In this document: positions 3,029 to 57,172 of the stretch, in pieces
How positions within the stretch are numbered: position 1 is the stretch's first letter
Layout: each line of letters begins with the position of its first letter
NCBI GenBank assembly: GCA_965217775.1
Contig: CBDCJH010000002.1
Coordinates: 800,001-864,000, forward strand
Origin: Acidobacteriota bacterium
Lineage (GTDB): Bacteria > Acidobacteriota > UBA6911 > RPQK01 > JAJDTT01
Reading direction: 5' to 3'
Length of the DNA: 64,000 nucleotides
Made by a program: the position numbers and the translations under genes
Notes under the pieces: generated by a model
Told to the model about the DNA's origin: nothing
Database searches by the model: none
The model's input: the letters and a program-made list of their open reading frames with translations, nothing else

Positions 3029-3196
3029 GGACAAAGCCATGGACTTCTCGACGCTGCTCGAAAACAAGGTGCTTCTGGCCGCCATTTCAGGCCTATCGGG
3101 CGTTGTCTTAACGCTGATTACCCAGCGGATTCTAGGGAAGCGCGGACTGTTCACCTACTTTGGGGGATTATATACGAAAGTGCCGAAACCTGAGCA

Positions 3197-3379
3197 TTAA
3201 CGCCGGTTCCGTGGCCGGTCTATCCATCTGATATTCACGGGCTGGACCAATGCACGGGCCAGCTCCTCGAAGTCTGCTTCCACGCGCATATCCGGTTCCA
3301 GTTCGGCCTTGGTCGGTTGGTAGGAATCCTTGACCAGTTCGATGGTGGGATGTTGGGGATTGTGTCTGGGTTTCTTCAT
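3197..3379 (-). CDS. 60-aa IS passenger protein
   Basis: ATGA overlap with upstream ORF; identical protein in both IS copies. Confidence 0.65.
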   Translation of the reverse strand: MKKPRHNPQHPTIELVKDSYQPTKAELEPDMRVEADFEELARALVQPVNIRWIDRPRNRR

Positions 3380-3881
3380 GCGGCCCTCGGCATCCTAGGT
3401 TGTTTCCCCTCAAAGTAGTCTTCCGCCGTGTAGATTTGAATCTTGGGCAGGTCCATGAAGCGTCCGGCGTTGACGGCGGCATTTCTCATGCCGTTGGTCA
3501 CTCGGTCTCGAAAGCAGGTGAAGATGCCGAGATCAGCTCCGGCCTGTCGACGTGCGCCGTTGAAGGCTTGGACGTGTCCGGGATTGGTAGAGCCGCCTTT
3601 GACCTGAGAAACGATGTCAATGAACCGGCCCTTGCGGATCGGGAGCCGTCCCACGCCGTCAATTCCGCCATCCCGTCTCTGGATTCGGTTCGGCTCCGTA
3701 CCCTCCACCAGAGCAGCAGCCCACCTCTCAAACCGGAATTTATCGATGCTGGCAAGCTCCTGAGCGTGTGTGATGGTATGGGGAAGGCCAATGTCTTGGG
3801 TGTGTTCCCAACGGATTCATCCGGGACATCCTCCCGCATGACTTCAAGGTGGTCTCCAAAGCTCAGTCGATTTTCGTTCAA
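3376..3881 (-). pseudogene. internally deleted DNA methyltransferase / Mrr-like nuclease passenger
   Basis: N-term MNENRLSFGDHLEVMREDVPDESV (MTase start) joined out of frame to ...DKFRFERWAAALV...DGGIDG...SQVKGG C-terminal domain. Confidence 0.7.
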
Positions 3882-4828
3882 CCCACCAAATCCTTGTAAC
3901 GCAGCCGCTTTCCCACCATCCGGTCAGCGACCAGGGCCATTTGATCCAACGTGTCCATGCGCCTTAGGTTGTGACGTGCGGCAAACTCTCCAACGTATCG
4001 GTCGGTGTGCTGTTCCGAGAAGTGGTGAAAGGTTCCGTGGTAACTCCGCTTCAACATCGACCAGAACGATTCGGCTCCGTTGGTGTGGCAGTTGCCTTTG
4101 ACGTACTCCTGAAGAGAATGCTTGACCGTCTCGTGATTGACAAGCCGGCCGTAAGAGGTTGAATCGTCGGTGTAGATCTTGGCATCTTCTCCCACGTGCT
4201 CCAAGACGAAACGGGAGAGGGTTTCAGACTTGGTGTCAGGGACGACTCGGGCCGACACTTGGTTGGAGGGGCGATCTTTGACGGCAGCCACGGCCGTCTT
4301 TCCAACGGCTCCACGTCCCTCCAGTTTGGCGCGTTTGGCCTTCGGCATATTCTTCCGCTTTCCGCCGAGATACGCCTCGTCAGCCTCGACCGGGCCGGAG
4401 AACAGGGCCATTCCAGTCAGGTTCAGACCTTTCCGTATCCGGTGAGCAAGGTGCCAAGCCGTCTTCTGTGTTACGTCCAGGTCACGATGCAGCTTCATGG
4501 AGGAAACGCTCTTGAGGCTGGTAGTAAGGAGGTAGGTCGCAAGCAACCAAGTCTGATAGCCGAGTTTGGAGGACTGCATAACCGTCCCGACCCGGACGCT
4601 GAACCGCTTGCCGCAATCGCGGCAACGATACGGCATGGAAGGATGCTTGGCTCCGGTCTGGACGTTGGTGGAGCCGCAATGGACGCAACAGACTTCCTCC
4701 GGCCACCGCCGCTTTATGAACCATTCCTCAGCGGCTTTATCGTCGGGAAATCTCTTGAAGAATCCGCGCAGTGAAAGTCCCTCTCGGAACGCCTTTCCGG
4801 GTGCCTTGTTCCGTGTCTCGTAACTCAT
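3878..4828 (-). CDS. IS1595 family transposase
   Basis: Zn ribbon CVHC/CRDC, VEADEAY, IYTDD, HTNGAESFWSMLKR. Confidence 0.95.
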   Translation of the reverse strand: MSYETRNKAPGKAFREGLSLRGFFKRFPDDKAAEEWFIKRRWPEEVCCVHCGSTNVQTGAKHPSMPYRCRDCGKRFSVRVGTVMQSSKLGYQTWLLATYLLTTSLKSVSSMKLHRDLDVTQKTAWHLAHRIRKGLNLTGMALFSGPVEADEAYLGGKRKNMPKAKRAKLEGRGAVGKTAVAAVKDRPSNQVSARVVPDTKSETLSRFVLEHVGEDAKIYTDDSTSYGRLVNHETVKHSLQEYVKGNCHTNGAESFWSMLKRSYHGTFHHFSEQHTDRYVGEFAARHNLRRMDTLDQMALVADRMVGKRLRYKDLVG

Positions 4829-5609
4829 TGCATCCTCCTGACTTACAAGACATATTCTATAGGAAAGTACCGGGATTGTCAACCCCTACGGGAAACCTTT
4901 TCGGCACTTTCGTATATAATCCCCCTACTTTGTGTGGCACAACCGTGTCGGCGTATCAGCCGACGACGCGGTATTCGGGACCGTAGGCGTCACTTGGAAC
5001 AGCAACGTAGTGCCAAACCTGTACTCATCGACAGTTGAGCTGAGAAACGAAAGTCTCGCTGACTACCAGAACGTCGTCGTGCGCGTGTTCTCGAACGACA
5101 CGCGCCTCTTGTCAGAACGCGCGGACTTGATGGGAACGACCCGCACCCTGGAATGGAGCGAGGAGTTCTCCCGTCGGTTGGCAGTCCAGCCAGGAACCCA
5201 GCCGACGGCGGGCCAGATGGTTCTATACGGGCGCCAGCGCGAATACGCCGTGCCGACGATGAATCGTGGTCAGATCGTGCGTCTGACGTTTCTGAATGCG
5301 CCTGACGGTGAGGCTCAGCCCACGATTTGGCTCGACATCGTTCATCCCGGTGTGAAGACCCGGTTCCGAGTGCCACATCAGCAGTTTCTTGGGACGCCGC
5401 AGCCCATCGCCGCGCTCATCGGCGCGGCTCTGGGTGTTCCCTTCCTGCTCGTAGTCGTCGCCTTGACCGACGTGGCCTGGGCCGCTGGGGTTCTGTGCTT
5501 ACTCTATGGGGTCTGCGTCGTCTTCCCGGGCGCGTACTTTATCAAGGCGTGGCGGGGGATCAGAGAGTTGGTCGGTGGATGATAGGGGGCACCGGCGCCG
5601 AAGGGCGCG

Positions 5610-8816: not shown

Positions 8817-9911
8817 TCATTTGTTGGATTTTCTGCGATTGCACTGCTTGCACAGCATTTGACAGTTCTGTGCGATTGTCTTGCCGCCCTCGGCCCAAGG
8901 GGTGATGTGGTCGGCCTCCATATACGACATCTCAAACTTCTTCGCACATGACTTGCAAATGCCGTTTTGACTCTCGAACGCCTTCTGCTTCATGGCGGGG
9001 GAGAAGGCCCGGATGTTGAGATGTTTCTCCTCGCCGGTGAGGAGATACGGGTAGATGCCCGCCTTTTTCGTCACATCGTCGTCGATCATCAGGCGGACAA
9101 TGTCGTCCTCAAGTCCTTCGGGATCCAGGCTCTCGTCTTTGAGTTGCCCGTAAAGCCCGCCCCAATCCACGCCTTTCATTGGCTTGCGGTAGTTCGGGAA
9201 AACCGCTTCCACCCGGTTGATTACCGCTTGGAAGTGACTCCACAAGGCGGTTGCGGTCTTGTCGTGCTGATGCGTGGCCATGTACTCTTCGACCGTCTGG
9301 CCCTCGTCCTTGATCCATTGGATCGCGATTTCGAGGTACTCCTGGCGATCCGCCCTCCCTTTCACATACCGACTTCCGATTGCATAAGCCGGGCAGGCGG
9401 CCCCCTTCCGGCTGAAATGCCGCTTTGCGTCGGACACCCACGGGCCAGCATAGACCGCATTCCGCAGCTCTTGGCTGGTCAGCCTTTCGCCCGCGATGTT
9501 GATGATCCTGAACCAAGCCAGCTTCTCGCTGGCACTCCCCTCGCAGAAATAAACCTGCAACGGGTAATTGAGGATCCGCTCCTGCTCGTCGTCTTGCAGG
9601 TTGTGGAAATACCGCCCGTCAAGGGAGTAGTCGCCTTTCACGTACTGCGCGGCTGAGATCGTGCGCTGCTGGCCGTCTATGACTTCATACGTTCCGTCTT
9701 GGCGCACGGCCCAATACATCACATTGAGCGGAAAGCCCTTGTTGATCGTCTCGATCACCGCATTGCGCTGCTTGTCCTTATAGACAAACTCGCGCTGAAA
9801 AGGCGGGCGGATGTCGAGTTTGCCGCCATAGCCGCGCACCCCGCCTTCGCCGTCGTCATGGTAGTCCTCCACAAGGTCGCGGACTGTGATTTTCTTCAGA
9901 TCAATTTTCAT
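8817..9911 (-). CDS. DUF262 + HNH endonuclease (GmrSD-like domain pair)
   Basis: PPFQREFVY, IDGQQR, EADHITPWAEGG...NCQMLCKQCN. Confidence 0.9.
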   Translation of the reverse strand: MKIDLKKITVRDLVEDYHDDGEGGVRGYGGKLDIRPPFQREFVYKDKQRNAVIETINKGFPLNVMYWAVRQDGTYEVIDGQQRTISAAQYVKGDYSLDGRYFHNLQDDEQERILNYPLQVYFCEGSASEKLAWFRIINIAGERLTSQELRNAVYAGPWVSDAKRHFSRKGAACPAYAIGSRYVKGRADRQEYLEIAIQWIKDEGQTVEEYMATHQHDKTATALWSHFQAVINRVEAVFPNYRKPMKGVDWGGLYGQLKDESLDPEGLEDDIVRLMIDDDVTKKAGIYPYLLTGEEKHLNIRAFSPAMKQKAFESQNGICKSCAKKFEMSYMEADHITPWAEGGKTIAQNCQMLCKQCNRRKSNK

Positions 9912-10434
9912 TGCGGCAGCACTCTCTTAATCAGAAGGCGAACATAAGTGGGTCTGAACTCGCCCCCAACCTTTATCACACCCCTTCTATTCAGATTGCC
10001 TGCGTTGGGCACATCTGCCACCGAGTATTCTTTCGTCTTAAGATCGGAGTTGTTGTCCCTGTCTGTTATCCCCATGACTTCGAACTGCTCCGGGTTGTGT
10101 TTGTCCAGAAATGTTATCGGCACCCCCATCGCCCCGTCCCAATCCATCGGGATTTCGGCGGTCTTGTCCACATTGATCGCGTCGTAGTTGTCGTAGGCCG
10201 GGTATTCCTCCGGCGAGTACCGCTTGTAGAGGATCAATTCCTCGTGGCGCATGGCATGGTCGAGATTGGTGAACCAGCCGACGTTTCTGAATTTGACCAG
10301 TCCGGTCGATTCGTCGAAGTACGACTTGCTTTCGTAGCGTTCAACGTCCGCCACCTTGAAATACGCGTTTCCATTGCTGAAGCCATATCCAAACCACACC
10401 CGGTTCTCTTTGATTAGCGGAAAAATCTCCTTAT

Positions 10435-12430
10435 CCCAGATTATTCATCACGCAAACATAAAATGGGAAAGCGTTCCCGCCATGTCGAGTCGGATCAGAG
10501 GGTTACGGGATACCCACAGAAAAAGGTCGAGAGCCGCCGTGGGTGAAACGCTATCGTGGTTTTCGACTCCGCCTTAATCTTTGGGTTCAGAGGGGTCCGA
10601 AACCCTCGCATTTCCAAGGTTTTCTCCCCTTCCATGGGCGGCAAAAAGAGGCGGCGTGCCCGTCATTTGTGGTATGATTATGGTGCTAAGAAACAACAAC
10701 AAAGAACGGAGCACGCCATGCCTGAGACGATACCGCAGATCCGGCCCTCATTCAACCGATCCCTCCGCCTCGAGACCCGCCCCGAGTTGCTCAGTGCGGA
10801 CACGGGAGCCCTGGTGCAACGGGAGATGATGGATCGTAGCGGCCTCATCGATTGGTTGACCGAGCGGTTGCACGATCGGCGACACCCGAGTTCGATCCGC
10901 TATCCGCTGTCGGATCTGCTGCGGACTCGACTCCTGCTGCTGGGGCAGGGCTGGCGCGACCAGTCCGACGCCGACCGCCTGCGTCAGGATCCGAGCTTGC
11001 GGGTGGCGAGCCAGACCCGTCGGGGCACGGCGGCCTTGGAGGAGGGCCAGGGGCTGGCATCGCAGCCGACCTTGTCCCGACTGCTGGACACGCTCAGCCG
11101 GGAGGAGAACGTTCCGGTCCTGCACCAGGCGGTGACGGAGCTGGCGTGCCGTCGGATCGAGATGATCGAAGGTCGGCGGCGAAAACGGGGGAAAAAGACC
11201 CCACGGAAGAAGAGACGGAAAAAGACGATGGTCCTGGACGTGGACGGTCTCCCGGTGGAGGTCCATGGGCATCCCCCGGGAAGCGAATGGAACGGATACT
11301 ATCGCCAGCGGATGTACCACGGGTTGGTGGCGAGTTGTGCCGAGACGGGGGACCTGATCGACGGGGAGATTTTTCCGGGAGCCAGCTACTTGGGGAAGAA
11401 GGCGCTGAAGTTGACGCTCCGGGTGGTGGACCGCTGTCGGGGGCGTCTGTGCGGCTCGATGATCGTTCGGATGGATGCGGGGTTCCCGGAGCCGGGGCTG
11501 CTGAAGGGGCTGGAATCGAGAAGCGTGCCCTATATCGCTCGAATCCGCAAGAATGAGGTCCTGAATCGGATGGCGAAGCCCTACTTGACCCAACCGGCGG
11601 GGCGATCCCCGGATGCACCACCGAGGCTCTGGTTCCATGAGCTGACCTATCAGGCGGAGAGTTGGGATCGGGCGCGCCGGGTGGTGCTGGTGGTGCGGGA
11701 GCGACCGGGGGAGTTGTATCCGGATCATTTCTGGTTGCTGACGAGCCTGAGCCGGAAGCGTTATGAGGCGGAAGCGTTGCTGGCAAAGTATCGCAAGCGG
11801 GGGAAGGCGGAAGGGCACATGGGGGAGTTGATGGACGTGTTCGATCCGGCCTTGTCCTCCGCGAGCCGGCCCAAGACGCACTATCGGGGCAAACCGCTGA
11901 AGCCGGGAGCCAAGCCGGAAGCGACGACGGAGGCCGGGGTTCGACCCCACAACGAAGTCTTGTTCCTGCTGAATCTGCTGGGGTACGAGATCCTGCACCT
12001 GGGTCGGGTGCTGATGGAGCAGGCGACGCGTCGGGGCTGGAGTCTGCGTCGTTTTCGCGAACGGGTGTTGCGAGTGGCGTCTCGGGCGCTGCGTCAGGGG
12101 AGGCGATTGATTTTCGTCATCAGTCAAGGGGCGACGGACTGGAAGCGGTTGTGGAAGAGCCTGGCGCGGGTGTCCTGGGCGCCGGGATAGTGGACGGAGG
12201 AGGAATCGGGCCCGTGGAAGGGACCGAAACGGTGGGAATTTCTCACCGGAAAGTCAACCTGTCGGCGGATGACGGTCCCCCTGGCCGGTAAACGGTTTAT
12301 GAGTGGTTCAATCGTCCTGTTTTTGAGCCGATTCAGTCGAATCGACAGAGGTTCGAGAGAAACCGGGCTCCGACCGCCAGAAAACGCCGGGCTGGAAGCC
12401 CTTATCAACATGTCCCATGAATAATCTGGG
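10435..12430 (+). mobile_element. IS1380-family insertion sequence
   Basis: TIR cccagattattcat / atgaataatctggg; 5-bp TSD cttat at 10430-10434 and 12431-12435. Confidence 0.93.
10718..12190 (+). CDS. IS1380 family transposase
   Basis: LASQPTLSR, LDVD, VRMDAGF, YRKRGKAE motifs. Confidence 0.92.
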   Translation: MPETIPQIRPSFNRSLRLETRPELLSADTGALVQREMMDRSGLIDWLTERLHDRRHPSSIRYPLSDLLRTRLLLLGQGWRDQSDADRLRQDPSLRVASQTRRGTAALEEGQGLASQPTLSRLLDTLSREENVPVLHQAVTELACRRIEMIEGRRRKRGKKTPRKKRRKKTMVLDVDGLPVEVHGHPPGSEWNGYYRQRMYHGLVASCAETGDLIDGEIFPGASYLGKKALKLTLRVVDRCRGRLCGSMIVRMDAGFPEPGLLKGLESRSVPYIARIRKNEVLNRMAKPYLTQPAGRSPDAPPRLWFHELTYQAESWDRARRVVLVVRERPGELYPDHFWLLTSLSRKRYEAEALLAKYRKRGKAEGHMGELMDVFDPALSSASRPKTHYRGKPLKPGAKPEATTEAGVRPHNEVLFLLNLLGYEILHLGRVLMEQATRRGWSLRRFRERVLRVASRALRQGRRLIFVISQGATDWKRLWKSLARVSWAPG

Positions 12431-13030
12431 CTTATAGGTGACGGCGTTCTTGCTCCCGATAATCAGGAACTTCTTGCCGTACTCCTCCAGTTGGGCGACG
12501 TATTCGCGGAACAGCGAAAACGGCGGGTTGGTCACCACGATGTCCGCCTGCTTCAAAAGCTCGATGCATTCCGGGCTGCGGAAATCCCCGTCCCCTTCAA
12601 ACGCATGGACCCCAATATCCTCTACGTCGGGTACTCTGCCGCCCTTAGAGTTCCCCTTGTATTCGAGCCATATCGCCCGCTCCACATCGTGACGGCTGAA
12701 TAGGTCGCGGTCCTGGTTCTTGTAGCACGCAGTGATGAGCTTCTTCAGGCCCAGGCGCTCGAAGTTGTACGAGAAGTAATGGAAGAAGTTGGAGACGCGG
12801 GGATCGTCGCAATTGCAATACACGACTTTGCCCCGGAAATGTCTGGTGTAGTGGCGCAGCTCGTTCTCGATGTCGGAAAGCTGCGTGTAGAACTCGTCGT
12901 TCTTCTGCCGCTTGGCTTTTCGTAAGTTTTCATTCAGAGACATGGGTTTGCTCCCTAACCAAGCCTGTTATCGGTGATCAGTCCCCGATATTTGAGCCGC
13001 TCATGCTCGTTCCCCAACCTCGGCACTTCG

Positions 13031-14174: not shown

Positions 14175-14478
14175 GCCTTCCCGCCAGGGATAAATGGGAT
14201 GGGAGCGACCCCCCCAGGGGGCGTTGCGCAAATGTGAATTGCGCAACGCCCCCGCGCCCGCTCCGGGCAGCAAAAAGGGGGGGTCGCTCCCGTCCACGTC
14301 CCCATTCCCCGAGCGGGCACCGCCGGTCCGAGGAATGGGACGTAAACATAGGAAAGACAAGGAGATCGGGGAAATCTCGTGTGTAAGTTGGCGAACTCTC
14401 ATAGTGTAAGTCACCCCCTTTGTCTCACTTACACTCCTGGATCGACACGGGTACCGCACTCTGAAACCTGAGCGAGAC
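14175..14478 (-). repeat. structured repeat copy C (GTGTAAG/CTTACAC variant)
   Basis: reverse complement aligns with copies B and D. Confidence 0.9.
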
Positions 14479-16060: not shown

Positions 16061-16364
16061 CTCGTTTCGGCAGTGCGTCAAGGGGGTCATGTGGCCGATC
16101 CGGGAGTGTGAATGGGACAAGCCGGGTGGATTCACAAAAAGCGGTCCCGGTGATTCACAAAGACGCTTCCCCCGATCTCCCTTTCCTGCTTGTGGTTACG
16201 GCCAGATCCGCGGACGCCGGCGCCCGCACGGGGAAATCGGAGGTGGACGGGAGCGACCCCCCCTTTTTGCTGCCCGTATCGGGCACGGGGGCGTTGCGCA
16301 ATTCACATTTGCGCAACACCCCCTGGGGGGGTCGCTCCCGTCTCATTGATCCCTGCGGGAAGGC
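16061..16364 (+). repeat. structured repeat copy D (GTGAAT/ATTCAC variant, full length)
   Basis: 17-bp outer stem 16246-16262/16326-16342 enclosing two hairpins. Confidence 0.9.
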
Positions 16365-19886: not shown

Positions 19887-20405
19887 GTGCCTAACCGGAG
19901 GCCCTTCAGTGTTGCCGCCGCGGCCCAGTACCTGAGCAATGCCATCGGCACGATTCGCAACCTGGCCGATTTGAACATCATCAAAGCCAGAGTCGAACTC
20001 GACACCGCCGGCCGGCTACGGCGGGTCTTCGCTCAGGAGGACTTGGACGACGATGTCGATTCTCTGGAGCCGTGGTACGATTCGCCCCACGGCGAAGAAC
20101 CCGGATCCAGAAAGGAGGAGATGCATGGGCATCTACAAGGTGAAGGATCGCCGGGGGAGGAGACGATACGTCTTCAGCAAGTACTGGCCGAACGGATCCG
20201 GTCGGCTCCGAATGTACGCCCCCAACTACCGGAGCGCACAGGCGCTCCAAACTCGGGTGGAGTCCAGCATCCTGGACGGCACCTGGAAGCAACTCAAGGA
20301 GGAACTCGCCGGTGGGAAACGCACCATCTGGACGGTGCACAGTTTCTACCAGCGTTTTCTCGAGGAGTATTGCAAACCTCGCATGCGCTCCTGGCGGAGC
20401 TATGA
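19887..20405 (+). CDS. excisionase-like HTH protein (tail overlaps integrase)
   Basis: FSVAAAAQYLSNAIGTIRNLADLNIIKA...RRVFAQEDLD directly upstream of int. Confidence 0.55.
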   Translation: MPNRRPFSVAAAAQYLSNAIGTIRNLADLNIIKARVELDTAGRLRRVFAQEDLDDDVDSLEPWYDSPHGEEPGSRKEEMHGHLQGEGSPGEETIRLQQVLAERIRSAPNVRPQLPERTGAPNSGGVQHPGRHLEATQGGTRRWETHHLDGAQFLPAFSRGVLQTSHALLAEL

Positions 20406-21210
20406 GGGTTCGTTCAAGAGCCTCAACGCCATGCTGGGGAACATTCCCCTGAAGGAGTTCCAACGCAAGGACCTGCACCGCTACGTCGCCCAGAGGAAGA
20501 AGCAAGTCAAATCGGCCACGGTGAACCGCGCCATCGCCGCCATCAGCAAGCTGTTTTCCTACGCGCTGGAGTGTGGGGAGATCGACACGCACCCGCTGGT
20601 GCGGTTTTCCAAACTAAAGGAGCCCAAGAAGGTCTTCCGGCCATTGACGGTTCAGCAGTTCCGCGACCTGGTCGAGGCGGTGGACAACCCTTACCTGCAA
20701 GCCATGATCGCAGTGATCGGCGAGACGGGGATACGCAAGGGAGAAGCGTTGTCGCTCACTTGGAAACGGGTGGACCTGCGTCGCGAATTGCTCTGGGTGG
20801 AACTCACCAAGAACGACGAGACGAGGGAGATACCGCTGTCGAAGTACGCCACCGGATATCTGGTCGGGCTGGTTCGTTATCTGAACACTCCATACGTCTT
20901 CGTCAACAGCCGGACGGGGACGAGATGGGTGAATCTCGACAAGCCGCTACGTCGCGCTGCCGAGAAGGTGGGGTTGAAGGTCGGATTTCACGATCTGAGG
21001 CGCTTCCGGTGCAGCCATTGGCTGATGCAGGGTGTGGACGTGAGGACGGTGCAGAAGCTGATGGGACACTCGGCGATCAGCACGACGATGCGGTATGCGG
21101 GGTACGTCAGTTCGCATGCGCTGGCAAGCATTCGGGAGGCACAGGCTAACGAAGACTCACAAACACAACAGGCAACAAACAGGCAACGGGCAGGAAGCAA
21201 GGGGCAATGA
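20125..21210 (+). CDS. tyrosine recombinase / integrase
   Basis: RBS aggagg; TGIRKGE, K, FHDLRR, MGHS, RY catalytic residues intact. Confidence 0.95.
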   Translation: MGIYKVKDRRGRRRYVFSKYWPNGSGRLRMYAPNYRSAQALQTRVESSILDGTWKQLKEELAGGKRTIWTVHSFYQRFLEEYCKPRMRSWRSYEGSFKSLNAMLGNIPLKEFQRKDLHRYVAQRKKQVKSATVNRAIAAISKLFSYALECGEIDTHPLVRFSKLKEPKKVFRPLTVQQFRDLVEAVDNPYLQAMIAVIGETGIRKGEALSLTWKRVDLRRELLWVELTKNDETREIPLSKYATGYLVGLVRYLNTPYVFVNSRTGTRWVNLDKPLRRAAEKVGLKVGFHDLRRFRCSHWLMQGVDVRTVQKLMGHSAISTTMRYAGYVSSHALASIREAQANEDSQTQQATNRQRAGSKGQ

Positions 21211-21252: not shown

Positions 21253-21291
21253 AATCCTGTAGCTCAGTTGGACCGAGCAACGGATTTCCAA
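21253..21291 (+). other. tRNA-like 5' half (att arm), not a complete tRNA
   Basis: aatcctg-TAGCTCAGTTGGACCGAGC-A-ACGGA-tttccaa; no T-arm or acceptor 3' strand follows. Confidence 0.8.
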
Positions 21292-21352
21292 TCGCCCATT
21301 CTTCAGCGCCAAATTGTCACTCTGGAGTTCGGCGGTTGGAAACCCCCGATCC
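21283..21352. repeat. REP-like inverted pair, left unit truncated by island junction
   Basis: gatttccaatcgcc ... ggcggttggaaacccccgatcc, just downstream of the aldolase stop. Confidence 0.65.
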
Positions 21353-25757: not shown

Positions 25758-25806
25758 GGAGGGGGGACAGTCTTGTCCCCCATTTGGGAGGGGGGACTGT
25801 TAGTCC
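25758..25806 (+). repeat. GGAG-type REP-like palindromes; second unit split by element 2
   Basis: ggaggggggacagtcttgtccccc and ggaggggggactgttagtcc (3' C-run missing here, found at 28241-28246). Confidence 0.7.
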
Positions 25807-25891
25807 TAATTGTCTCTCAGTCAAAAACTAACGAACATTAACTTTTTACGGAGCAAATGCGGAGGTTGCCGGCTGAACCCGTTTCCTGGTA

Positions 25892-26113
25892 GCCGACTTG
25901 TAATCGGTACGGCGTTAACAGCCCGTGGTAAAAGTCGTCACGGCATTCGACCGTCCCTGCATCCCGGCGGACTGCGTTGCTATCGGCTCACATACTCCCG
26001 GTATGCTCCCTCCGTTGCGCCTTGTCCGGCGGGCGCAGGAACGGTCTCGGTGCTCGCGGGACTTTCACCACGGGCTGTTAAGCCGCGCGGGTTCGACTCC
26101 CGCCCCGCTTCCA
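25892..26113 (+). other. degenerate tRNA-like 3' part (anticodon, long variable and T arms) split by a MITE
   Basis: GCCGA-CTTGTAA-TCGGT, CGGC-gttaa-GCCG, GCGGG-TTCGACT-CCCGC, cccgcttCCA after removing the MITE. Confidence 0.65.
25915..26081 (+). mobile_element. MITE family 1, copy 1
   Basis: TIR acagcccgtggt / accacgggctgt flanked by TA/TTAA; internal hairpins; 3 copies in window. Confidence 0.85.
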
Positions 26114-26265
26114 TCAGCGTATGATAGTTGGGAATCTCAGGATGCAATCAGAAACGAAGATGCCCGCCAAGCAGGCCGAGCGACCGAGGCTCGACACCGC
26201 GCTCACCGAGAATCTAAAGATGCTGGGGTTCGAGGGTGGGGGGCCGTGAAGCCCGGAGGGAACTC

Positions 26266-28017
26266 GTGAACGTAACCGACGCGGAAATCCGCCAGCGTTT
26301 GCGCCTGGGCGAGGACAGCGGCTGGGAGTTCAAGCAGATCGAATTTAGTGGCGATCGCCCGACAAGCCTCCGGCGAGAGGACCTCTCCGATGAGATTGCG
26401 GCCTTCGCCAACGCGAACGGGGGCGTGCTTCTTTGCGGGATTTCCGACGGCGGTCGGATCCAGGGTATGTCCCCAGAGCAGATGGCCGCTCTTGACCACC
26501 TGTTGGTCGAAGTGAGCACGGACGCGGTGGAACCTTCCCTTCGCATCCACGTTCACCATCGAGAACTCGACGGCAGGGCCTTCGTACTCGTGGCTGTACC
26601 GCGGGGCGATGCCGTACACGAGCGAGCCGGTCGCGCATTCATCCGGGTCGGCGCAACCAAACGCCGCCTCGGCGGCGACGAGCGTCTGCGGCTGGCGCGA
26701 GGACGCGCCCAGAGCCGCTACGTCTGGTTCGACCGGCAGATTGTTCCGCAGACCGGCTTCGAGACCCTCAACGAGCGTCTTTGGGAACCGCTGCTCAGCG
26801 TGGCAGGAGCGTCTGACCCTCGCCGGGCTCTGATGAACCTTCGGCTTCTGGCGCCCGATGAAGCCGATGTGGACCGGGCCACGGTAGCTGGCGTGCTGCT
26901 CTGCACCAACTCTCCCCAGGACTGGTTGCCGCAAGCGACTATCGTGGCGACCCGCTATCGCGGCAAGGAACGAGCCTCCGGCCAGTTGGACGCACAGGAA
27001 ATCGCAGGGCCGCTTCCCATCCAGATCGCTCACGCGGTGAAGTTCGTGGTCCGCAACATGCGCGTATCGGCACGCAAGACGCCTTCGCGAGAAGATGCGC
27101 CGCAGTACAGCAAGTCTGCGGTGTTTGAAGCCGTGGTCAACGCGGTTGTGCACCGCGACTACTCAATGTCCTCGCGCCGGATCAGGCTGTCGATGTTCAA
27201 GGATCGGCTGGAGATTGACTCGCCCGGTCAACTTCCCAACGGGATGACAATAGACAGCATGGATTCGAGTCAAGCAACACGCAACGAAGTTCTCGCTTCC
27301 GTGTTTGGACGAATCCCCGTGGGCGACGTTCCCGGGTCTCGGCATCGCCGATACATGATGGAACGCCGAGGGGACGGCGTCTCGATCATCCTCACGGAAA
27401 CCCGCGAGACCGCCGGCATTGAGCCGGAGTACAGAGTCATTGATGTGTCGAGTCTGGTGCTGGCTATCCCGGCGGCCAGACTCGAACTCACACCGTCGGA
27501 CGCCACGGTCACGGTGCACATGGAGGGCGAGCCTCTAGTCGGCGTCGACATCCTGGCCCTGTTTCCGAACAAGACTTGGCAACGGGCAACAACCGACGAA
27601 GCTGGCGAAGCAGACTTCGACCTGTACACGACGCATCTGCCGATGACCGTTTACGCCGCAGTCTCCGGGTACACTGCCGGGTTGGCACGGGAGTGGACTC
27701 CGCGCCAAGGCGGCCTGTTGCTGGAACTGGCTCCGCTCCTGGCCGGAGGCGCGATCATTTTTCCACAGTCTACCGGACATCTCCCCGGACTTCGCGGACG
27801 GCTGAACCCGATACGCGATACTTCCGATCGGACCTATCTGTACGCAGACAACGTCGCCATCGAGCAGGGACGGCAGCAGCCGGTGTCGTTCCGGCTGGGC
27901 AAACCGATGAGGCTAACAGACGCGTTCGGTGTCGAAATGTCAGTAACCATAGTCGACATCATTGGGAGTTCGGCCCTAGTGGAATACAGGCCCTTCGAAA
28001 CCAGCAAGAACCGGTGA
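26266..28017 (+). CDS. AlbA_2 (Schlafen-like) domain + HATPase_c_4 protein with extra C-terminal domains
   Basis: GEDSGWEFK, IAAFANANGG, EAVVNAVVHRDY, EIDSPG. Confidence 0.88.
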   Translation: MNVTDAEIRQRLRLGEDSGWEFKQIEFSGDRPTSLRREDLSDEIAAFANANGGVLLCGISDGGRIQGMSPEQMAALDHLLVEVSTDAVEPSLRIHVHHRELDGRAFVLVAVPRGDAVHERAGRAFIRVGATKRRLGGDERLRLARGRAQSRYVWFDRQIVPQTGFETLNERLWEPLLSVAGASDPRRALMNLRLLAPDEADVDRATVAGVLLCTNSPQDWLPQATIVATRYRGKERASGQLDAQEIAGPLPIQIAHAVKFVVRNMRVSARKTPSREDAPQYSKSAVFEAVVNAVVHRDYSMSSRRIRLSMFKDRLEIDSPGQLPNGMTIDSMDSSQATRNEVLASVFGRIPVGDVPGSRHRRYMMERRGDGVSIILTETRETAGIEPEYRVIDVSSLVLAIPAARLELTPSDATVTVHMEGEPLVGVDILALFPNKTWQRATTDEAGEADFDLYTTHLPMTVYAAVSGYTAGLAREWTPRQGGLLLELAPLLAGGAIIFPQSTGHLPGLRGRLNPIRDTSDRTYLYADNVAIEQGRQQPVSFRLGKPMRLTDAFGVEMSVTIVDIIGSSALVEYRPFETSKNR

Positions 28018-28200
28018 GAGTTTGGCCGAATATCTTGAAAGTAAGGTTTCCTTTTCCCCCTCAAATTGGGGGATGTAGTCAGGATAATCCTTAAAGTGCC
28101 TCGATGCCTTTCCGATCTCTGGCTTCCAGTCGCAGTATGGTTCGGATCTCGTTGCTTCGTCAGAATCTCGCCCAGGCCCAGGAACTACTATTAGTCCCCA

Positions 28201-28239
28201 CATCCCGTAGCTCAGTTGGACAAAGCGACGGACTGTCAG
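28201..28239 (+). other. tRNA-like 5' half (att arm), second copy
   Basis: catcccg-TAGCTCAGTTGGACAAAGC-G-ACGGA-ctgtcag. Confidence 0.8.
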
Positions 28240-28281
28240 TCCCCCCAAGCCCCGGAACCGGGGGTTGCAAACCCCCGCTCC
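28230..28281. repeat. REP-like palindromes at right junction
   Basis: ggactgtcagtcccccc and gggggttgcaaacccccgctcc next to the transporter stop codon. Confidence 0.7.
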
Positions 28282-36676: not shown

Positions 36677-37024
36677 GGCCGACTCCTGCTGTTGCGGTTC
36701 AAACCGTTTCTCTCCTGCCACGCCGATGCCCAGATCGCGATCGGTGGCGGGCCTACGATTGATTCCTCAGAATACGCCTCTCCAGCCGCCCGTGGCAAGA
36801 AGAGAACCGCGCTGCAACCGGTGGGGCGCGGAACGCTCGCCACAGGGTCTCACGTCATGGCCCAACTTGATCCGGGGATTCATTTTGTATTACATACTAC
36901 ATTGAGCTGGGCAGCGGGAGAAACTAATGGGGATTATATACGAAAGTGCCGAAAAAGTTGCCCGTAGGGGTTGACAATCCCGGTACTTTCCTATAGAATA
37001 TGTCTTGTAAGTCAGGAGGATGCA

Positions 37025-37975
37025 ATGAGTTACGAGACACGGAACAAGGCACCCGGAAAGGCGTTCCGAGAGGGACTTTCACTGCGCGGATTCTTCAAGA
37101 GATTTCCCGACGATAAAGCCGCTGAGGAATGGTTCATAAAGCGGCGGTGGCCGGAGGAAGTCTGTTGCGTCCATTGCGGCTCCACCAACGTCCAGACCGG
37201 AGCCAAGCATCCTTCCATGCCGTATCGTTGCCGCGATTGCGGCAAGCGGTTCAGCGTCCGGGTCGGGACGGTTATGCAGTCCTCCAAACTCGGCTATCAG
37301 ACTTGGTTGCTTGCGACCTACCTCCTTACTACCAGCCTCAAGAGCGTTTCCTCCATGAAGCTGCATCGTGACCTGGACGTAACACAGAAGACGGCTTGGC
37401 ACCTTGCTCACCGGATACGGAAAGGTCTGAACCTGACTGGAATGGCCCTGTTCTCCGGCCCGGTCGAGGCTGACGAGGCGTATCTCGGCGGAAAGCGGAA
37501 GAATATGCCGAAGGCCAAACGCGCCAAACTGGAGGGACGTGGAGCCGTTGGAAAGACGGCCGTGGCTGCCGTCAAAGATCGCCCCTCCAACCAAGTGTCG
37601 GCCCGAGTCGTCCCTGACACCAAGTCTGAAACCCTCTCCCGTTTCGTCTTGGAGCACGTGGGAGAAGATGCCAAGATCTACACCGACGATTCAACCTCTT
37701 ACGGCCGGCTTGTCAATCACGAGACGGTCAAGCATTCTCTTCAGGAGTACGTCAAAGGCAACTGCCACACCAACGGAGCCGAATCGTTCTGGTCGATGTT
37801 GAAGCGGAGTTACCACGGAACCTTTCACCACTTCTCGGAACAGCACACCGACCGATACGTTGGAGAGTTTGCCGCACGTCACAACCTAAGGCGCATGGAC
37901 ACGTTGGATCAAATGGCCCTGGTCGCTGACCGGATGGTGGGAAAGCGGCTGCGTTACAAGGATTTGGTGGGTTGA
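37025..37975 (+). CDS. IS1595 family transposase
   Basis: protein identical to copy 1. Confidence 0.95.
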   Translation: MSYETRNKAPGKAFREGLSLRGFFKRFPDDKAAEEWFIKRRWPEEVCCVHCGSTNVQTGAKHPSMPYRCRDCGKRFSVRVGTVMQSSKLGYQTWLLATYLLTTSLKSVSSMKLHRDLDVTQKTAWHLAHRIRKGLNLTGMALFSGPVEADEAYLGGKRKNMPKAKRAKLEGRGAVGKTAVAAVKDRPSNQVSARVVPDTKSETLSRFVLEHVGEDAKIYTDDSTSYGRLVNHETVKHSLQEYVKGNCHTNGAESFWSMLKRSYHGTFHHFSEQHTDRYVGEFAARHNLRRMDTLDQMALVADRMVGKRLRYKDLVG

Positions 37976-38477
37976 ACGAAAATCGACTGAGCTTTGGAGA
38001 CCACCTTGAAGTCATGCGGGAGGATGTCCCGGATGAATCCGTTGGGAACACACCCAAGACATTGGCCTTCCCCATACCATCACACACGCTCAGGAGCTTG
38101 TCAGCATCGATAAATTCCGGTTTGAGAGGTGGGCTGCTGCTCTGGTGGAGGGTATGGAGCCGAACCGAATCCAGAGACGGGATGGCGGAAATGACGGCGT
38201 GGGACGGCTCCCGATCCGCCAGGGCCGGTTCATTGACATCGTTTCTCAGGTCAAAGGCGGCTCTACCAATCCCGGACAGGTCCAAGCCTTCAACGGCGCA
38301 CGTCAACAGGCCGGAGCTGATCTCGGCATCTTCACCTGCTTTCGAGACCGAGTGACCAACGGCATGAGAAATGCCGCCGTCAACGCCGGACGCTTCATGG
38401 ACCTGCCCAAGATTCAAATCTACACGCCGGAAGACTCCTTTGAGGGGAAACAACCTAGGATGCCGAGGGCCGCATGA
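37972..38477 (+). pseudogene. internally deleted MTase / Mrr-like passenger
   Basis: as copy 1, with 8 substitutions. Confidence 0.7.
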
Positions 38478-38656
38478 AGAAACCCAGACACAATCCCCAA
38501 CATCCCACCATCGAACTGGTCAAGGATTCCTACCAACCGACCAAGGCCGAACTGGAACCGGATATGCGCGTGGAAGCAGACTTCGAGGAGCTGGCCCGTG
38601 CATTGGTCCAGCCCGTGAATATCAGATGGATAGACCGGCCACGGAACCGGCGTTAA
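38474..38656 (+). CDS. 60-aa IS passenger protein
   Basis: identical to copy 1. Confidence 0.65.
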   Translation: MKKPRHNPQHPTIELVKDSYQPTKAELEPDMRVEADFEELARALVQPVNIRWIDRPRNRR

Positions 38657-38696
38657 TGCTCAGGTTTCGGCACTTTCGTATATAATCCCCAAACTA

Positions 38697-44588: not shown

Positions 44589-44729
44589 CGAGTGCCGAGA
44601 CCGTTCCTGCGCCCGCCGGACAAGGCGCGATTCGGGTGCATACCGGGAGTATGTGCCCGAATCGCAACGCCGTCCGCCGGGATGCAGGGACGGTCGAATG
44701 CCGTGATGACTTTTGCCACGGGCTGTTAA
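44589..44729 (-). mobile_element. MITE family 1, copy 2 (one end lost)
   Basis: reverse complement of copies at 25915 and 57009. Confidence 0.8.
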
Positions 44730-44784
44730 CATACGGGTCGCAAGGTAACGCGTTCACGCCAGCCGCAACGAGGTCATTTCACCA

Positions 44785-56911: not shown

Positions 56912-57008
56912 CGATGGCGTCTCCGGAAACACGAAAGCCCGCGCCGGAGCACGGGCCTCGGAAAGAGAGCAAGACAAGCTTGCATCTCATGAGCAACTAT
57001 ACCTCCTC

Positions 57009-57172
57009 AACAGCCCGTGGCAAAAGTCATCACGGCATTCGACCGTCCCTGCATCCCGGCGGACGGCGTTGCGATTCGGGCACATACTCCCGGTATGCAC
57101 CCGAATCGCGCCTTGTCCGGCGGGCGCAGGAACGGTCTCGGTGCTCGCGGGACTTTCACCACGGACTGTCAA
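57009..57172 (+). mobile_element. MITE family 1, copy 3
   Basis: acagcccgtggcaaaagtc ... gactttcaccacggactgt. Confidence 0.85.

Follow-up and report, generated by a model that had tools for sequence, protein, structure and literature searches.

Some genomic islands and prophages have tyrosine integrases that cross over in the anticodon loop of tRNA genes, for which a sublocation scheme of tRNA integration sites exists, and the secondary-site and 'site affinity' mutants of lambda are a precedent for a core that is changed by a mismatched event. Identity of the overlap is strictly required by most members of the tyrosine-recombinase family, with IntDOT as the exception (PMC2817482, in the part of the source cited here). 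REP sequences are targets of several insertion sequences (ISs), namely IS1397 and ISKpn1 (IS3), IS621, ISPa11 and ISPpu9/10 (IS110), and members of IS4, IS256 and IS5 (Tobes & Pareja 2006, PMC1525189); the cited part of that work names five IS families as REP-targeting and no tyrosine-recombinase element. The literature searched yielded no description of REP targeting by tyrosine recombinases, and the REP-targeting tyrosine-integrase family described here looks new.

The window analysed is a 64,000-nt stretch of an Acidobacteriota genome (G000; GenBank assembly GCA_965217775.1, contig CBDCJH010000002.1, positions 800,001–864,000, forward strand), and it holds two insertions, element 1 and element 2, with the following features:

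1–21284, + strand: body of element 1, about 22.4 kb in total, its left end lying outside the window
20053–21210, + strand: tyrosine integrase of element 1, 385 aa (PF00589, E 1.3e-26)
21257–21297, + strand: right junction of element 1 (ACGGA-TTTCCAA-TCGCCC), with a tRNA-like arm, the core TTTCCAA (21285–21291) and then the REP 3' stem TCGCCC
25761–25781, + strand: intact neighbouring hairpin GGGGGGACAGTCTTGTCCCCC, kept in relatives without element 2
25790–25796, + strand: 5' stem GGGGGGA of the split REP-type target hairpin, left flank of element 2, pairing with 28240–28246
25797–25803, + strand: left 7-nt core of element 2, CTGTTAG, with identical letters in the orthologous copies of G007 and G002
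25804–25842, + strand: conserved left arm of the family as found in element 2, a 39-nt motif (TCC...CAGTCAA..ACTA...AAC.TTAAC)
25915–26081, + strand: MITE-like repeat (about 163 nt, ends inverted) lodged in a TTAA within element 2 and not part of the element family
26236–28017, + strand: sole long ORF of element 2, 593 aa, SLFN_AlbA_2 plus HATPase_c_4, cargo and not a recombinase
28205–28232, + strand: right arm of element 2, by repeat comparison a look-alike of a tRNA 5' half (D arm and 5' strand of the anticodon stem), ending in GGA
28233–28239, + strand: right 7-nt core of element 2, CTGTCAG, with identical letters in G007 and G002
28240–28246, + strand: 3' stem TCCCCCC of the split target hairpin, pairing with 25790–25796

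Direct reading confirmed that element 2 (25797–28239) splits a GGGGGGA-N7-TCCCCCC hairpin. On the + strand, its left junction runs GGGGGGA (25790–25796), CTGTTAG (25797–25803) and TCC (through 25806), and its right junction GGA (from 28230), CTGTCAG (28233–28239) and TCCCCCC (28240–28246); the outer flanks, when joined, form a perfectly paired hairpin, 7 bp in the stem and 7 nt in the loop. The two cores are about 2.4 kb apart and show a single difference, T at 25801 versus C at 28237. The imperfect duplication reported in a preliminary description of this DNA is therefore real, as is the difference in core between the two insertions (TTTCCAA in element 1, CTGTTAG/CTGTCAG in element 2). The only long ORF matched PF04326 (E 1.2e-16) and PF13749 (E 2.2e-19) and had no match in NCBIfam. 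Neither a domain search of the window nor tblastn identified an integrase or recombinase gene within element 2, whose mobility would need an integrase in trans, and the element is an old, integrase-less derivative of a family of elements with a Xer-like integrase. The MITE-like repeat is present in many copies in every genome of the genus and is missing from the G007 ortholog of element 2, a contig joint from 25913 to 26077 falling at the repeat. Rfam gave no match in the whole window at gathering score, and a looser scan of the MITE-free G007 copy returned solely an 18-nt T-arm-like match to the tmRNA model. A known RNA family was rejected on the basis of this Rfam result and of ARAGORN, in which the window, L116 and L104 all came out without a tRNA.

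Element 1 begins 1,144 nt (1.1 kb) ahead of the window, at G000:C2:798857, with the junction GGGGCGA-TTTCCAA-TCC, and its core TTTCCAA is identical at both ends. Its integrase, the sole intact copy of the family in G000 according to tblastn, has a SAM-like N-terminal domain and a PF00589 match spanning profile positions 3–166 of 172; with this Phage_integrase catalytic domain encoded, element 1 would qualify as a tyrosine-recombinase integrative element. The nearest solved structures are XerC-like, XerA and XerD, and the best NCBIfam matches are Xer models, yet at scores far under the curated cut-offs (XerC 104 bits versus 335). This likeness is shared with chromosomal XerC/XerD/XerA, from which the family gene differs in being multi-copy, in lying inside mobile elements and in these low scores.

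Several observations place the two insertions together. They share the left arm and the tRNA-like right arm, the final 44 nt ahead of the right flank of element 2 being 80% identical to 21254–21297 at the right end of element 1, and they represent one family of elements, presumably moved by the Xer-like tyrosine integrase; the preliminary description was right to treat them as such, even though element 2 itself lacks the gene. The 39-nt left-arm motif occurs at 9 places in G000, 30 in G004 and 27 in G005, a scan of G000 gave four right arms and nine left arms, and dozens of loci in six genomes of the genus carry the motif or the tRNA-like right arm, so that these ends of elements are not a chance resemblance. 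Two more complete elements were found in G000 (e3 and e4), with the cores TTTCCAA and CTTCCAG, each alike at both ends. Integrase matches at E ≤ 1e-30 were present in 24 of 41 related genomes (G000 counted), reaching 28 in G004, where many copies are intact, and 14 in G005, both of which also contain elements of 2.7–3.1 kb with the integrase only, and the integrase gene ends about 50–90 nt ahead of the right arm. Insertion has been recent, since three sets of identical integrase genes have their members at different loci.

Each flank of these elements is half of a hairpin from a family spread over the genome, GGG[CG]GA-N7-TC[CG]CCC, of which G000 contains 113 perfect copies (0 in a reversed-sequence control), with TTTCCAG, TTTCCAA and TTTCTAG as the commonest loops. 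By simple count, the rebuilt targets had stems of 4–7 bp in 31 of the 42 left/right pairs considered below. In REP-specific insertion, multiple copies and the sparing of genes the family resembles the REP-targeting ISs (PMC1525189, in the part cited), whereas those ISs are moved by DDE/DEDD transposases and the present elements encode a tyrosine recombinase in place of a transposase.

The attachment site consists of a fossil tRNA-Arg(TCT) 5' half, 7 nt at the place of the anticodon loop, TCC and the conserved left arm. The resemblance of the right arms to tRNA-Arg(TCT) extends from roughly position 4 as far as the anticodon stem, and the real gene of G000 lies at C2:3954263. In the window no tRNA gene is rebuilt at either junction (no tRNA by ARAGORN, and flanks that are REP hairpins). 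In G003, an integrase with 85% identity is located directly upstream of an intact tRNA-Arg(tct) that forms the right junction, and the left junction, about 47 kb off, comprises the tRNA 5' half, CTTCTAA and the family left arm; this element still splits a real tRNA-Arg(TCT) gene at the anticodon loop. Relatives further removed, in G035 and G010, likewise present an integrase followed by a tRNA-Arg gene. The position of these integrases points to the tRNA-Arg anticodon loop as the ancestral target, with the 5' half supplied by the element, and within the genus the family has shifted to REP-type hairpins resembling an anticodon arm. G035 holds two identical integrases beside tRNA-Arg genes with the loops CTTCTAA and CTTCGAA; the left junctions found there do not pair with these two integrases, and one of the tRNAs adjoins a second, unrelated integrase.

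With the islands of tRNA anticodon loops the family has in common a 7-nt overlap at the loop, a symmetric stem that provides the half-sites and, in G003, a relative in tRNA-Arg(TCT). It differs from them in that what the element holds of the tRNA is the 5' half and not the 3' part, and in that targets in the genus are REP-type hairpins, with up to 28 integrase matches per genome. A lineage of tRNA-targeting tyrosine integrases has gone over to repeated extragenic hairpins that mimic the anticodon arm, behaving like an IS while keeping a fossil tRNA half.

To compare the cores at the two ends, arms were located in G004, G005, G006, G007, G003 and G002 with sequence patterns and from the DNA that follows each integrase, each right end was paired with its left end, and pairs were counted from six genomes (G000 3, G003 1, G004 25, G005 9, G006 1, G007 3). 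Across these six genomes, and with draft assemblies hiding repeats, the 7-nt core was identical at both ends in all 42 pairs other than element 2 (41 distinct flank pairs), and one further identical pair, beyond the 42, belongs to a 0.6-kb mini-element on G007 C33. Twelve cores are represented among the 42 pairs, with TTTCCAA (10), CTGTTAG (8), TTTCCTA (7) and CTAACAG (7) ahead of eight rarer ones. Dropped before the count were G005 3872057/3873901 (TTTCCTG versus TTTCCTA), which has a left end of opposite orientation in its interior and a doubled, identical left junction ahead of it, and which is perhaps, but not certainly, a second one-letter mismatch; G007 C59 12380/20528, with nested elements; G000 800596/821285, whose nearest left motif is internal, the true partner being 798857; and G000 4125333/4167095 and G008 C257 978/1060 as spurious pattern matches.

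The TTTCCTA class delimits the core, as its target reads GT...CC where the element reads GA...TC; the letters shared by element and target are exactly 7 nt, and these 7 nt are therefore the crossover (overlap) region. The block of identity between the ends measures exactly 7 nt in this class and 11–13 nt elsewhere, as an overlap plus half-sites. The same class qualifies the view that the GA...TC flank is constant: it is so at 8 of 8 canonical left ends and 4 of 4 right ends in G000, but not in the GT-TTTCCTA-CC targets of relatives. As in lambda-type integrases, the overlap is the same in attL and attR, element 2 being the single exception, and the usual unlikeness of ends in Tn916- and CTnDOT-type elements is seen in 0 of 42 pairs and at 1 of 7 positions in element 2. 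The family thus appears, from the junction sequences, to follow lambda-type overlap identity and not Tn916/CTnDOT-type tolerance, with the difference from lambda-type integrases that one integrase type serves many cores and element lineages carry different overlaps. Targeting by loop identity is ordinary tyrosine-recombinase logic.

A tree of 40 integrase genes showed the cores to be clustered, with 15 changes (minimum 11; mean of shuffled sets 27.4; none of 200 shuffles so low). Cores are not strictly bound to clades, CTGTTAG and its reverse complement CTAACAG interleaving in one clade of 16 rows (one of them a copy cut short on the right by the contig boundary), where integrase genes about 0.66% apart serve these opposite cores. 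Since near-identical integrases are associated with different cores, the protein does not specify the loop. Integration would require the 7 nt of the element to equal the target loop, as in lambda-type recombinases, while the integrase would bind the flanking half-sites and be indifferent to the letters of the loop. Each element lineage would keep its own core and enter the REP subfamily with that loop; CTGTTAG and CTAACAG would be one hairpin entered in two orientations, the asymmetric loop setting the orientation within a hairpin of symmetric stem. The earlier proposal that the stem is read and not the loop thus holds in so far as crossover takes place in the 7-nt loop, whose sequence is not dictated by the integrase, and fails in that left and right core agree in every counted pair.

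The mismatch of element 2 is old, because the CTGTTAG/CTGTCAG pair is common to three orthologous copies and reflects one event: G000, G007, which has the same flanks, and G002, which agrees in the right flank and has acquired an IS upstream. A copy at another locus, on G008 C595, has cargo 92% identical and a right end that also reads CTGTCAG, and no recognisable left end was found for it; the cargo homologue in G005 is not bordered by ends of the family, and a search of metagenome contigs with the exact 27-nt right-arm pattern gave no match for further copies of this lineage. An empty target was sought in the orthologous intergenic region, flanked by a DUF1501 gene and a short-chain fatty acid transporter gene, of the 8 other genomes of the genus and not recovered: G007 and G002 carry element 2 at the site, G003, G006, G004, G008 and G001 lack the second hairpin, and G005 has no recognisable hairpin. 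In sequencing runs X19, X21, X23 and X24, contigs that span the site have neither element 2 nor the second hairpin.

We give about even chances to the reading that the T/C difference is a post-insertion transition, from C to T in the left copy; the direction is suggested by the independent relative of element 2, which also has CTGTCAG. A matched target for such an element was possible, as the genus has 15 hairpins with a CTGTCAG loop, spread over 5 of 9 genomes. Consistent with mutation, element 2 is old and decayed, lacks an integrase and carries a MITE-like repeat; core transitions do occur, the left core of the remnant e8 being CTTTCCT in G000 and CTTTTCT in its G007 ortholog; and no recent insertion with a mismatch is found among the 42 pairs. 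Against it, a random single change would have to yield exactly the commoner natural variant of the loop.

For the right end in G008, an element with a C core that met a T-type target is no worse an explanation than mutation. In such a rare one-mismatch integration, which we regard as a serious possibility somewhat short of an even chance, an ancestor of element 2 with the core CTGTCAG would have entered a CTGTTAG loop, and replication would have resolved the heteroduplex overlaps, leaving the letter of the target at the left end and that of the element at the right. The presence of CTGTCAG at the right end in two independent copies of the lineage (the site shared by G000, G007 and G002, and G008 C595) speaks for this, as do the available targets: the 3 other hairpins of this class in G000 are all CTGTTAG and none is CTGTCAG, and T-type hairpins outnumber C-type across the genus (74, some of them element junctions, versus 15). 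The class with CCCCC directly after, to which the G008 right end belongs, had a single further copy (CTGTTAG) among five genomes, too small a number to weigh. It is weakened by the lack of any mismatch in the other 42 pairs, by the fact that the sole clear case is an old, decayed element in which mutation is also expected, and by the G008 copy having no recognisable left end. One-mismatch events would be the way in which the family changes its core and hence its target subfamily, and 15 of 18 junction cores fall into one network of single-letter steps (plus one reverse-complement link) from the tRNA-Arg loop CTTCTAA, whereas 2000 random 7-mer sets gave largest components of 1.2 on average and of 3 at most. 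REP loops share descent among themselves, however, so the network may reflect the repeats and not the elements, and is compatible with stepwise retargeting without proving it. The identical integrase genes of G035 beside tRNA-Arg loops one letter apart point the same way, although these loci have undergone rearrangement and a second integrase, different in type, adjoins one of them, which makes them no clean case. The wider reading, in which the family retargets stepwise by one-mismatch integrations, carries the new core along after excision from CTTCTAA to REP loops and has left element 2 as a frozen intermediate, is one that we hold to be less likely than not; if true, it would have allowed IS-like proliferation. 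The earlier notion that the family picks up the loop of its last target survives solely as such a possible rare one-mismatch event and not as a regular habit.

Far less probable is tolerance of heterology throughout the family as in Tn916 or CTnDOT, in which the stem alone would be recognised and the loop of the last target regularly carried on. The variation of the core among members with like arms, the near-identical integrases that serve different cores and the mismatch in element 2 speak for it. Regular carry-over should produce frequent differences at several positions, whereas the exception is confined to one position, and the cores cluster on the integrase tree. Collecting the left and right cores of family members, as the preliminary description had proposed, gave perfect duplication in all other copies examined, the outcome that it had itself set against its claim, and the notion of a heterology-tolerant, stem-only integrase should not be carried forward. 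That the repeats are target-site duplications from a transposase-type staggered cut is least credible of all: although a direct repeat of 11–13 nt flanks each element, a tyrosine integrase is the only recombinase tied to the ends, these lack the form of inverted repeats, the arms themselves supply GGA and TCC around the core, and the repeat in G003 is a whole tRNA 5' half, as predicted by attP/attB identity and not by a duplication of fixed length.

With lambda-type overlap identity as the preferred reading for the family, near-identical integrases on different 7-nt overlaps offer natural sets for testing the role of the overlap in target choice and orientation. As to cargo, element 1 encodes functions of defence type (a GmrSD_N/HNH nuclease, an EcoRI-type methylase interrupted by an IS, a HigB/HTH pair and a DUF4145 protein) and also holds IS1595- and IS4-type insertion sequences. 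A second left-arm motif, without a junction, is found inside element 1 at about 596–650.

Element 2, the shorter of the two tyrosine-integrase islands in the window (25797-28239), is 97% identical between the source genome (G000) and G002, another genome of the genus, against only 91% for the flanking transporter gene, a difference in sequence identity that hints at transfer of the element 2 region between species. In G002, a multi-copy IS-like element (L142; G002:C1 ~5422350-5423850) lies directly upstream of element 2's left junction. Within element 2, both G000 and G002 carry a MITE-like repeat of ~163 nt that is missing from G007, the closer relative. This repeat has inverted ends (TTAACAGCCCGTGG...CCACGGGCTGTTAA) and TTAA flanks, occurs in many copies per genome in all nine genomes of the genus, and occurs in the window at these positions:

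25915-26081, plus strand, MITE-like repeat (inside element 2)
57000-57172, plus strand, MITE-like repeat
44589-44730, minus strand, MITE-like repeat

In its left part (25848-26116, corresponding to L116:1560-1660 of the G007 copy, which lacks the MITE), element 2 also contains an anticodon-arm-like hairpin, GCCGA CTTGTAA TCGGT, followed by a T-arm-like hairpin and ...CTTCCA. ARAGORN called no tRNA at these hairpins, and their sole Rfam match, which covers 18 nt of the T arm, was to the tmRNA model.

The target hairpins form part of a longer two-part repeat unit (window 21298-21345 and 28247-28280; C2:2771560 region of the source genome), with a second hairpin 25-40 nt downstream of the target hairpin at the sites of element 1, element 2 and e4, a further complete family element in G000. 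The second hairpin consists of CGGCGG or GGGGG, followed by TTGGAAA or TTGCAAA and then by the complement.

In G005, a right arm is fused straight to a left arm via the core TTTCCAG (L160; G005:C1:410789-410830), an attP-like junction as expected from two elements arrayed in tandem. In the more distant relative G035 (L226, L228, L230, L231), two identical integrase genes adjoin tRNA-Arg genes with nearly identical bodies but different loops (CTTCTAA vs CTTCGAA); two left junctions bear a tRNA 5' half of another type, and a second integrase (46% identical) lies on the other side of one tRNA.

Element 1 (body within the window 1-21284) holds one of two inverted copies of an IS1595-family insertion sequence (1765 nt, 99% identical), bounded by 27-nt terminal inverted repeats, and an EcoRI-type adenine methylase gene interrupted by an IS4-type transposase gene and adjoined by a nuclease gene:

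3160-4924 and 36929-38693, inverted copies, IS1595-family insertion sequence
8817-9911, GmrSD_N/HNH nuclease gene
9908-10399 and 12308-12943, minus strand, two pieces of the EcoRI-type adenine methylase gene
10556-12190, IS4-type DDE transposase gene

A family of 70-170-nt repeats in element 1 (1026-1678, 14185-14444 and 16061-16358) comprises direct and inverted copies of 85-91% identity, and a related stretch occurs in e3, a short complete family element of G000.
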